Assembly (NCBI RefSeq): GCF_055900595.2
Contig: NZ_CM148325.1
Length of the DNA: 64,000 nt
Direction: 5' to 3' (one strand)
This document shows, in pieces, positions 34,601-35,438 of this stretch. The notes beneath the pieces were generated by a model. It had not been told where the DNA came from, did no database searches, and saw nothing but the letters and a program-made list of their open reading frames with translations. A program made the position numbers and the translations under genes. Numbering within the stretch: position 1 is the first letter of the stretch; every line of letters starts with the position of its first letter.

Positions 34601-34912
34601 ATGCCTGGAAAAACAGTCGCTCTACCCGATATCGATAAAACGCTGAAAAATGCGCGGGTTGAACTCAAAACCAGTCCCGACGCCAAAAACAAACTTCGTG
34701 AAGCTGCGCAAGCCGTTGGGGTAGATTTAAGCGCTTTTATTTTGAGCGCAGCTATGGAACGCGCCGAAAGTGTGCTTGATAACCAACGTCGCCGTGAGCT
34801 TTCGAATCAAAGCTGGGAACTGATGAACCAACTCATCGCTGAACCTGCTCAACCGACGCTCGCCCTCAAGGCGTTAATGAAAAGGAAAAACAGCGATGGT
34901 CGACAAGCATGA
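34601..34912 (+). CDS. DUF1778-type ribbon-helix-helix antitoxin (TacA/AtaR/KacA-like), 103 aa
   Basis: ATG at 34601 preceded by AAGAGG RBS; core LKTSPDAKNKLREAAQAVGVDLSAFILSAAMERAESVL resembles DUF1778 antitoxins; overlaps the downstream GNAT gene by 17 nt. Confidence 0.75.
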   Translation: MPGKTVALPDIDKTLKNARVELKTSPDAKNKLREAAQAVGVDLSAFILSAAMERAESVLDNQRRRELSNQSWELMNQLIAEPAQPTLALKALMKRKNSDGRQA

Positions 34913-35438
34913 AGAGATTACTCTGCCCATAGTCCTCTCCTGTAATTATCAGTCTGATATTACTTATCCTGGGCAAAAACAGTTTGATTGCGGTAACCCT
35001 GTTATCGATAAATTTGTACGCGCATCGCTAAAGAAAAGTGTGCGTAATAGCGACTGTGCTGCTAAAGCACTTATTGACAGACAAAGTGGTGAACTGATTG
35101 GCATCTGTACTTTTACGGCATATTCGCTGGAAAAACAACGCGTTTCTGGCGTCCTTCAGGGTTCACAACCTTCAGAGATTGGTGTTGTCAGATTAGTCAT
35201 GTTAGGGGTAGCGCGGAAATATCAAAAGCGGGGCTTTGGTCAGGACCTACTATGTGATTTTTTTGAACATGTAAAAATAATTCACCGGGCATTACCAATT
35301 AAAGGGGTTTATCTTGATGCTGACCCTGCCGCCATTAACTTTTATACTCGTCTCGGCTTTGTTCAGCTTTCAGCGAGGCCCAATGTTTTCGGTGCTGTAC
35401 CGATGTTTTTAGCGATTCAGCATATTCTCGCGGCTTAG
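34896..35438 (+). CDS. GNAT-family acetyltransferase toxin (TacT/AtaT/ItaT/KacT-like), 180 aa
   Basis: ATG at 34896 with AAGGAA RBS; FDCG motif near the N-terminus (QKQFDCGNPVIDKF) and acetyl-CoA-binding motif VARKYQKRGFGQDLL typical of type II GNAT toxins; operon partner of the DUF1778 antitoxin. Confidence 0.75.
   Translation: MVDKHEEITLPIVLSCNYQSDITYPGQKQFDCGNPVIDKFVRASLKKSVRNSDCAAKALIDRQSGELIGICTFTAYSLEKQRVSGVLQGSQPSEIGVVRLVMLGVARKYQKRGFGQDLLCDFFEHVKIIHRALPIKGVYLDADPAAINFYTRLGFVQLSARPNVFGAVPMFLAIQHILAA

Follow-up and report, generated by a model that had tools for sequence, protein, structure and literature searches.

[quoted passage not shown] ItaRT is already known, having been characterized genetically, biochemically and structurally since 2018-2020; our analysis gives names to two genes that RefSeq labels "GNAT family N-acetyltransferase" and "DUF1778 domain-containing protein". 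The original prediction, in which a ribbon-helix-helix (RHH)/DUF1778 protein is paired with a GNAT toxin resembling TacT, AtaT, ItaT and KacT, is thereby supported and narrowed to ItaRT, by identity to the module of E. coli HS and by the shared site between cyoE and yajR. The experimentally important residues of the module are intact and it is under purifying selection. We conclude that the window should carry a functional itaRT allele, with a mechanism that would be the same as in HS.

Gene pair and protein families

The module consists of two genes:

34601-34912, plus strand: itaR, encoding a 103-aa RHH (TacA1/DUF1778) antitoxin and co-repressor of 11.37 kDa; Shine-Dalgarno (SD) sequence AGAGG at 34591-34595
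34896-35438, plus strand: itaT, encoding a 180-aa GNAT aminoacyl-tRNA N-acetyltransferase toxin of 19.95 kDa; 17-nt overlap with itaR

In both the open reading frame list and the raw sequence, itaR begins with the ATG at 34601 and ends with the stop codon at 34910-34912; itaT, on the same strand, extends from the ATG at 34896 to the stop codon at 35436-35438, and the two genes share positions 34896-34912 (ATGGTCGACAAGCATGA). Such a two-gene operon, with overlapping genes and the antitoxin gene in the lead, is the arrangement of GNAT/DUF1778 TA systems. A 103-aa RHH antitoxin, a 180-aa GNAT protein, their order and their 17-nt overlap had all been described beforehand, and each was found at the coordinates given for it. 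Good ribosome-binding sites had likewise been claimed for both genes; this holds for itaR, with AGAGG 5 nt ahead of its ATG, whereas the AAGGA of itaT, 9 nt ahead of the ATG, is usable but has a long spacing. Because of that spacing, it is likely that translation of itaT is coupled to that of itaR through the overlap.

ItaT contains the FDCG (residues 30-33) noted earlier near its N-terminus, as well as the predicted acetyl-CoA-binding motif, VARKYQKRGFGQ (residues 105-116), within which the Q/RxxGxG/A consensus appears as QKRGFG (residues 110-115). With the catalytic Y150, also present, QKRGFG makes up the motif set of GNAT toxins. In all checkable details, then, the earlier description of the gene pair was confirmed. 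The profile searches proposed with it were also informative: ItaR matches Pfam TacA1 (PF08681, formerly DUF1778) over residues 19-96 (E = 1.3e-17), and ItaT matches three GNAT Pfam families (E = 1.6e-07 to 8e-06). Among structures in the PDB, ItaT aligns over its full length (residues 1-180) with chain A of 7BYY (E = 1.3e-115), while the best of the other GNAT toxin chains reach E = 5e-09 to 1e-05, the KacT and AtaT chains E = 1.7e-06 to 6e-05 and the TacT-type chains about 8e-04. ItaR aligns with KacA (E = 3.5e-11) and AtaR (E = 8.6e-09) in both its RHH and its C-terminal toxin-binding parts. NCBIfam holds no specific or curated model for either protein and gave only sub-threshold hits (MshD and PaiA for the GNAT protein, MobA for the RHH protein). 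No PADLOC-DB family matches ItaR or ItaT at E <= 0.01, and a catalogued role in phage defence thus has no support from PADLOC.

The protein in 7BYY is ItaT from E. coli HS, inactivated by the mutation G115D (Zhang et al. 2020, PMC7367177); the window protein has the wild-type G115. Relative to wild-type HS ItaT, 176 of 180 residues are identical (97.8%), the differences (window/HS) being R131/Q, T151/A, R161/T and V164/A. The antitoxins share 100 of 103 residues (97.1%) and differ at V6/A, A7/T and I11/V; since the domain match in ItaR starts at residue 19, these three substitutions fall in an N-terminal extension, outside the domain. Both proteins are therefore near-identical to their HS counterparts over the full length, and the original caveat that this copy might not equal a characterized one proved apt, with 4 of 180 and 3 of 103 residues changed. 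The HS pair (ECHS_RS02485/ECHS_RS02480) also has the same locus, protein lengths and 17-nt overlap. In the literature on this system (PMC6125619 / PMC7367177), its locus tag is printed as "EcHs_A0501-EcHs_A0501".

To interpret the four toxin substitutions, we took residue roles from PMC7367177 and PMC6125619. The hydrophobic pocket for the aminoacyl group comprises V36, I37, F40 and M102; G115 binds acetyl-CoA, Y150 is the general acid and L133 lies at the dimer interface; a basic patch of K39, R42, K46, K47, R50, K80 and R82 contacts tRNA (PMC7367177). All 14 of these residues are unchanged in the window protein, as are the mutationally defined residues of the HS module. The retention of the pocket, catalytic, dimer and tRNA-binding residues makes a different tRNA target unlikely, and the window toxin likely acts on Ile-tRNA(Ile) and, to a lesser degree, on tRNAs charged with Val and Met.

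A different reading of the same two genes is that itaT encodes a housekeeping or metabolic GNAT (for example, one like RimI) with an unrelated small RHH regulator upstream. One source does call the exact protein a "ribosomal protein S18 acetylase RimI-like enzyme", and the NCBI annotation says just "GNAT family N-acetyltransferase". A best match to a housekeeping GNAT had been named at the outset as the result that would speak against a toxin; RimI, however, matches only residues 99-167 of ItaT, with E = 0.005 against 1.3e-115 for the ItaT structure, and no NCBIfam equivalog comes near its cut-off for the GNAT protein (about 19 bits, against cut-offs of 163-250). Moreover, the 97.8%-identical HS protein is toxic and is neutralized by the product of the gene upstream (PMC6125619). 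Identity to an experimentally characterized toxin rules out the housekeeping enzyme, to which we assign a negligible probability.

Genomic island, distribution and haplotypes

The itaRT module lies in a variable segment of the chromosome with the following features:

34429-34458, plus strand: intrinsic terminator of cyoE, a perfect 13-bp stem with a 4-nt loop and flanking A and T runs; left edge of the island
34459-36765, no strand assigned: variable island with itaR, itaT and a TPR gene, between the cyoE terminator and the region upstream of yajR; right end approximate
35450-35482, no strand assigned: stable hairpin in the gap where itaT and the TPR gene converge (-28.1 kcal/mol, z = -3.9; RNA fold)
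35494-36429, minus strand: TPR/Sel1-like gene, a pseudogene with an in-frame TGA at codon 249 (35683-35685); outside the TA module

In E. coli K-12 MG1655, merely 148 bp separate cyoE from yajR. The hairpin of the cyoE terminator is also found after cyoE in K-12, and the sequences diverge beyond it; because K-12 homology stops just past the hairpin, we placed the left edge of the island at the terminator. Some 75-80 bp ahead of the yajR start, the two sequences are homologous again. The junctions were set by eye, by comparison of the window with the K-12 sequence, and the right one (~36765) is approximate. Defined in this way, the island comprises about 2.3 kb after the cyoE terminator and has a GC content of 43%, as compared with 50% in the window. 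Around the cyo operon of the HS chromosome, the gene order is the same as in the window, cyoE-itaR-itaT-TPR-yajR.

Of 5426 complete E. coli genomes, 1370 (~25%) carry the 1.2-kb itaRT region, at a median of one copy each. E. coli W is among the carriers, as is BLR(DE3), a derivative of the B strain, which is relevant to the expression of ItaT or related toxins in E. coli B and W hosts. The exact proteins, which are annotated as WP_000227787.1 (ItaT) and WP_001353405.1 (ItaR) in a genome 100% identical to the window, each occur on at least 1000 public contigs.

In HS, the TPR gene is intact and encodes 311 aa; it is annotated with an "internal stop" in the genome that is 100% identical to the window. 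Compared with HS, it has a nucleotide identity of 85.5% and a dS of 0.53, and is far more diverged than itaRT; identity falls to 67.5% in the spacer on the yajR side. The island is therefore a mosaic. The hairpin at 35450-35482 was considered as an intrinsic terminator of itaT and rejected, as it is without a U-tract and its stem is not kept in HS, where the counterpart has stem mismatches and refolds differently (-26.7 kcal/mol). A consensus scan for an intrinsic terminator 3' of itaT gave weak sites inside coding sequence only.

The disrupted TPR gene invites the view that the whole island is a decaying remnant, in which itaRT looks intact but is silent or inactive; the absence of itaRT from about 75% of complete E. 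coli genomes, indicating that it is dispensable, would fit this. Against it, itaR and itaT are full length, with their starts, SD sequences, promoter hexamers, both upstream palindromes (see below) and catalytic residues intact, purifying selection on itaT is strong, and the exact proteins are widespread on public contigs. With its reading frames and signals intact and its dN/dS low, a decayed remnant was rejected, and we regard it as highly improbable. A module preserved as a functional allele is the reading that we retain.

Selection was estimated from the comparison with HS (Nei-Gojobori). The nucleotide identity is 98.1% for itaR, 97.1% for itaT and 95.7% for the upstream region. The 12 synonymous and 4 non-synonymous differences in itaT correspond to a dN/dS of 0.095; for itaR, the value is 0.29. 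In dS, itaT (0.10) is on a par with the core gene next to the island, cyoE (0.107), indicating that the window and HS haplotypes are approximately as old as the divergence of the strains at this locus. Within E. coli, the four changes in ItaT and the three in ItaR travel together as one linked haplotype. The species thus has two linked itaRT haplotypes, one of which has been studied so far. When itaT alone is compared, identity to the window is 99% or higher in 103 genomes and 95-99% in a further 1265; in a sample spread across the listed matches, the latter group sits at about 97%, which corresponds to the HS type. The window-type haplotype accounts for roughly 100 of the 1368 itaT-positive complete genomes.

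Two haplotypes raise the question of whether the module, while still ItaRT, differs from HS ItaT in activity or aminoacyl-tRNA preference through R131, T151, R161 and V164. The linkage of the four substitutions in a haplotype separate from the HS type is compatible with such a change, as are their locations: T151 adjoins the general acid Y150, and R131 is two residues from L133 of the dimer interface, so that, judged by sequence, a quantitative effect on activity is conceivable. In addition, related GNAT toxins share a fold yet differ in specificity (PMC9177977). However, the pocket residues (V36, I37, F40 and M102) and the basic tRNA patch are identical to HS, and the dN/dS of itaT counts against altered activity. 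We also compared ItaT with two plasmid homologs, one of 77% identity in Citrobacter freundii and one of 62% identity in Serratia marcescens. Listed in the order window/HS/Citrobacter/Serratia, the variant positions read R/Q/Q/N at 131, T/A/A/K at 151, R/T/P/A at 161 and V/A/A/P at 164; in the same alignment, I37, F40, M102, G115, Y150 and L133 are invariant. The four positions therefore vary freely among homologs, and E. coli itself has Val as a further variant at position 151, a pattern that fits neutral surface variation. We accordingly consider a haplotype-specific change in preference or activity very unlikely, and expect the window module to behave as the HS module does.

Putative promoter and twin palindromes

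Upstream of itaR, between the island edge and the SD sequence, we identified three sites:

34470-34496, no strand assigned: candidate operator O1, the palindrome AGAGATACGG-ctaataa-CCGTATCTCT, with the core ATACGG-N7-CCGTAT at 34474-34492; adjoins the -35 hexamer
34496-34524, plus strand: putative sigma-70 promoter of itaRT, with -35 TTGACA (34496-34501), a 17-nt spacer and -10 TAAATT (34519-34524)
34529-34547, no strand assigned: candidate operator O2, ATACGG-ttgatag-CCGTAT, directly 3' of the -10 hexamer

The putative promoter, found by a consensus scan, matches the consensus at 10 of 12 positions. Its site is within the span of the 172-bp upstream fragment assayed by Wilcox 2018, for which promoter activity and its repression by ItaR-ItaT were demonstrated. 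The two palindromes flank it at a distance of 55 bp, start to start. In the 64-kb window, ATACGG-N7-CCGTAT has two exact copies, both at the itaRT promoter; by chance, 0.14 would be expected in the window with up to one mismatch allowed.

Two copies of the shorter form, TACGG-N7-CCGTA, precede the antitoxin gene in HS and in both plasmids, at the same 55-bp spacing in that of Citrobacter and at 61 bp in that of Serratia. The K-12 locus, which is without itaRT, has none. The palindromes are about 170-240 bp from the annotated antitoxin start in the plasmid homologs, and about 55-130 bp from it in the window. The alignment of the four sequences shows no change in either palindrome core or in the TTGAC of the -35 hexamer amid diverged flanks and spacers, a pattern that reads as a phylogenetic footprint. 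The window and HS differ slightly here, O1 being a perfect palindrome with 10-bp arms in the window and having one mismatch in HS. That the palindromes are kept in plasmid homologs of only 62-77% identity argues that they are probably operators of the ItaR-ItaT complex, and we propose them as candidates.

According to this model, the ItaR-ItaT complex would bind both TACGG-N7-CCGTA palindromes and occlude the promoter core. If so, the spacing of 55-61 bp (~5-6 helical turns) would allow one or two heterohexamers to clamp or loop the promoter core, an arrangement unlike the single operator that has been crystallized for KacAT and AtaRT. The conserved twin palindrome thus offers a testable operator model and is possibly an undescribed detail of the system: a search of Wilcox 2018 (PMC6125619) found operator, palindrome and inverted repeat nowhere mentioned. 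That at least one of two proposals, the palindromes as operators or a haplotype differing in activity or tRNA preference, is both true and previously unreported is possible, although we would not count on it.

Mechanism and comparison with known systems

For the HS allele, the literature documents toxicity and its neutralization, the target tRNA, the rescuing effect of peptidyl-tRNA hydrolase, and autorepression. Expression of itaT alone stops MG1655 from growing and, within 5 minutes, shuts off methionine incorporation; growth is restored when itaR is expressed as well, the Y150A mutation removes toxicity, and ItaR and ItaT co-purify at what appears to be a stoichiometric ratio (Wilcox et al. 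2018, PMC6125619). In the same study, a galK fusion to the 172-bp upstream fragment is repressed by the ItaR-ItaT complex and not by ItaR alone, independently of acetyltransferase activity (PMC6125619). The reported target spectra disagree between studies: ItaT acetylates Ile-tRNA(Ile) exclusively in vitro in Wilcox 2018 (PMC6125619), while Zhang et al. 2020 (PMC7367177) give Ile-, Val- and Met-tRNAs, in vivo and in vitro, and a 2022 study likewise lists Ile, Val and Met. Ribosome profiling in the 2022 study (PMC9177977) found stalling at Ile codons, chiefly AUU and AUC, and showed that peptidyl-tRNA hydrolase counteracts ItaT toxicity, from which it follows that elongation and not initiation is blocked (PMC9177977).

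Transferred to the window, these results suggest the following course of events. ItaR would be made first from the shared mRNA, and its C-terminal part would bind ItaT tightly and neutralize it. Free ItaT would work as a dimeric GNAT, acetylating above all Ile-tRNA(Ile), in particular its GAU isoacceptor, and Val- and Met-tRNA less strongly. The acetylated aminoacyl-tRNA would be unusable in elongation, leading to ribosome stalling at AUU and AUC and to growth arrest, damage that peptidyl-tRNA hydrolase could undo. The itaRT promoter would be repressed by the ItaR-ItaT complex rather than by ItaR alone. By analogy with KacAT and AtaRT, we infer that this complex is a heterohexamer of four antitoxins and two toxins, which would block both acetyl-CoA binding and toxin dimerization.

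The closest characterized system is that of E. coli HS, whose promoter region carries both palindromes; beyond the substitutions and the O1 mismatch described above, the window differs from it in the TPR neighbor, which is intact in HS and has become a pseudogene in the window.

KacA-KacT of Klebsiella pneumoniae (PDB 5ZGN, 5XUN) is a more distant relative in sequence. It has the same two-domain RHH antitoxin, aligned over residues 14-96 of ItaR, and a toxin with the GNAT fold and motifs of ItaT (E = 1.7e-06 for KacT). Its complex binds a palindromic operator in autoregulation (PMC6698736): the KacA4-KacT2 heterohexamer contacts the DNA through R8 and R12 of the RHH domain, and blocks acetyl-CoA binding and toxin dimerization (PMC6698736). 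The two DNA-contact residues align with R19 and K23 of ItaR. At 103 aa, ItaR is 15 residues longer than KacA (88 aa), with the extra residues at both ends. KacA alone binds DNA (PMC6698736), whereas ItaR alone does not repress (PMC6125619); the predicted layout of twin palindromes around the promoter core would further set ItaRT apart from KacAT, and the tRNA preference of KacT is unlike that of ItaT.

AtaR-AtaT of E. coli O157:H7 (PDB 6AJM, 6GTS) and TacA-TacT of Salmonella (PDB 5FVJ, 7AK8) belong to the same GNAT/DUF1778 family of type II TA systems, whose toxins acetylate aminoacyl-tRNA. Their toxins match ItaT with E = 1e-05 to 8e-04, and AtaR matches ItaR with E = 8.6e-09. The toxins differ from ItaT in target: AtaT is a broad-range enzyme biased toward Gly and Met, whereas Gly is preferred by TacT and TacT3. 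In the GNAT toxin tree, ItaT falls in clade B, AtaT in clade A, and TacT3 and AtaT2 in clade D (PMC9177977).

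Plasmid homologues of ItaRT and their candidate operators

Homologues of the ItaR antitoxin and the ItaT GNAT toxin are encoded on a Citrobacter freundii plasmid (locus L005), beside a gene annotated as 'baseplate protein', and on a Serratia marcescens plasmid (locus L006), about 840 bp downstream of repB. The Citrobacter plasmid is possibly a phage-plasmid. Upstream of both homologues lie the same twin palindromes, TACGG-N7-CCGTA, that flank the itaRT promoter in the window as candidate operators:

L005 966-982 and 1021-1037, twin palindromes, Citrobacter freundii plasmid
L006 897-913 and 958-974, twin palindromes, Serratia marcescens plasmid

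The occurrence of both homologues on plasmids, each with this pair of palindromes, points to a mobile origin for ItaRT and to conservation of the putative operator design.

Mosaicism of the island

Two further features lie 3' of itaT:

35450-35482, stable hairpin in the gap where itaT and the TPR gene converge (-28.1 kcal/mol, z = -3.9)
35494-36429, minus strand, TPR/Sel1-like gene adjoining itaT, a pseudogene in the window lineage

The hairpin lacks a U-tract, and its stem is not kept in E. coli HS. Codon 249 of the TPR/Sel1-like gene is an in-frame TGA (35683-35685), the corresponding codon in HS encoding Arg. Relative to HS, this gene has 85.5% nucleotide identity (dS 0.53) and the spacer toward yajR just 67.5% identity, whereas itaRT is far less diverged (97-98% nucleotide identity, dS 0.04-0.10). 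Because the TPR gene and the yajR spacer have diverged so much further than itaRT, the island is a mosaic.

Chromosomal surroundings

Lon, ClpX and ClpP are proteases to which the degradation of type II antitoxins is generally attributed. In a genome 100% identical to the window over 34430-35640, their genes occupy 5560-10125 of locus L004 and precede itaRT by about 10-15 kb; by offset from those coordinates, their window position is approximately 19990-24560. This proximity is simply a matter of core-genome gene order, which strains without itaRT share. A second insertion, one that HS does not have, lies between yajO and pgpA:

46582-48111, plus strand, 509-aa ORF

Its GC content is very low (31.6%), and other records annotate it as a pentapeptide-repeat protein; in HS the yajO-pgpA gap is 54 bp and lacks the ORF.

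Laboratory and industrial carriers

Chromosomal HS-type itaRT is present in E. coli W and in the B-lineage strain BLR(DE3) (match-list entries H32 and H51, respectively), both common laboratory/industrial strains. This may be relevant when a B-lineage strain is used to express GNAT toxins; Zhang 2020 (PMC7367177), for example, used BL21(DE3) as its expression host.
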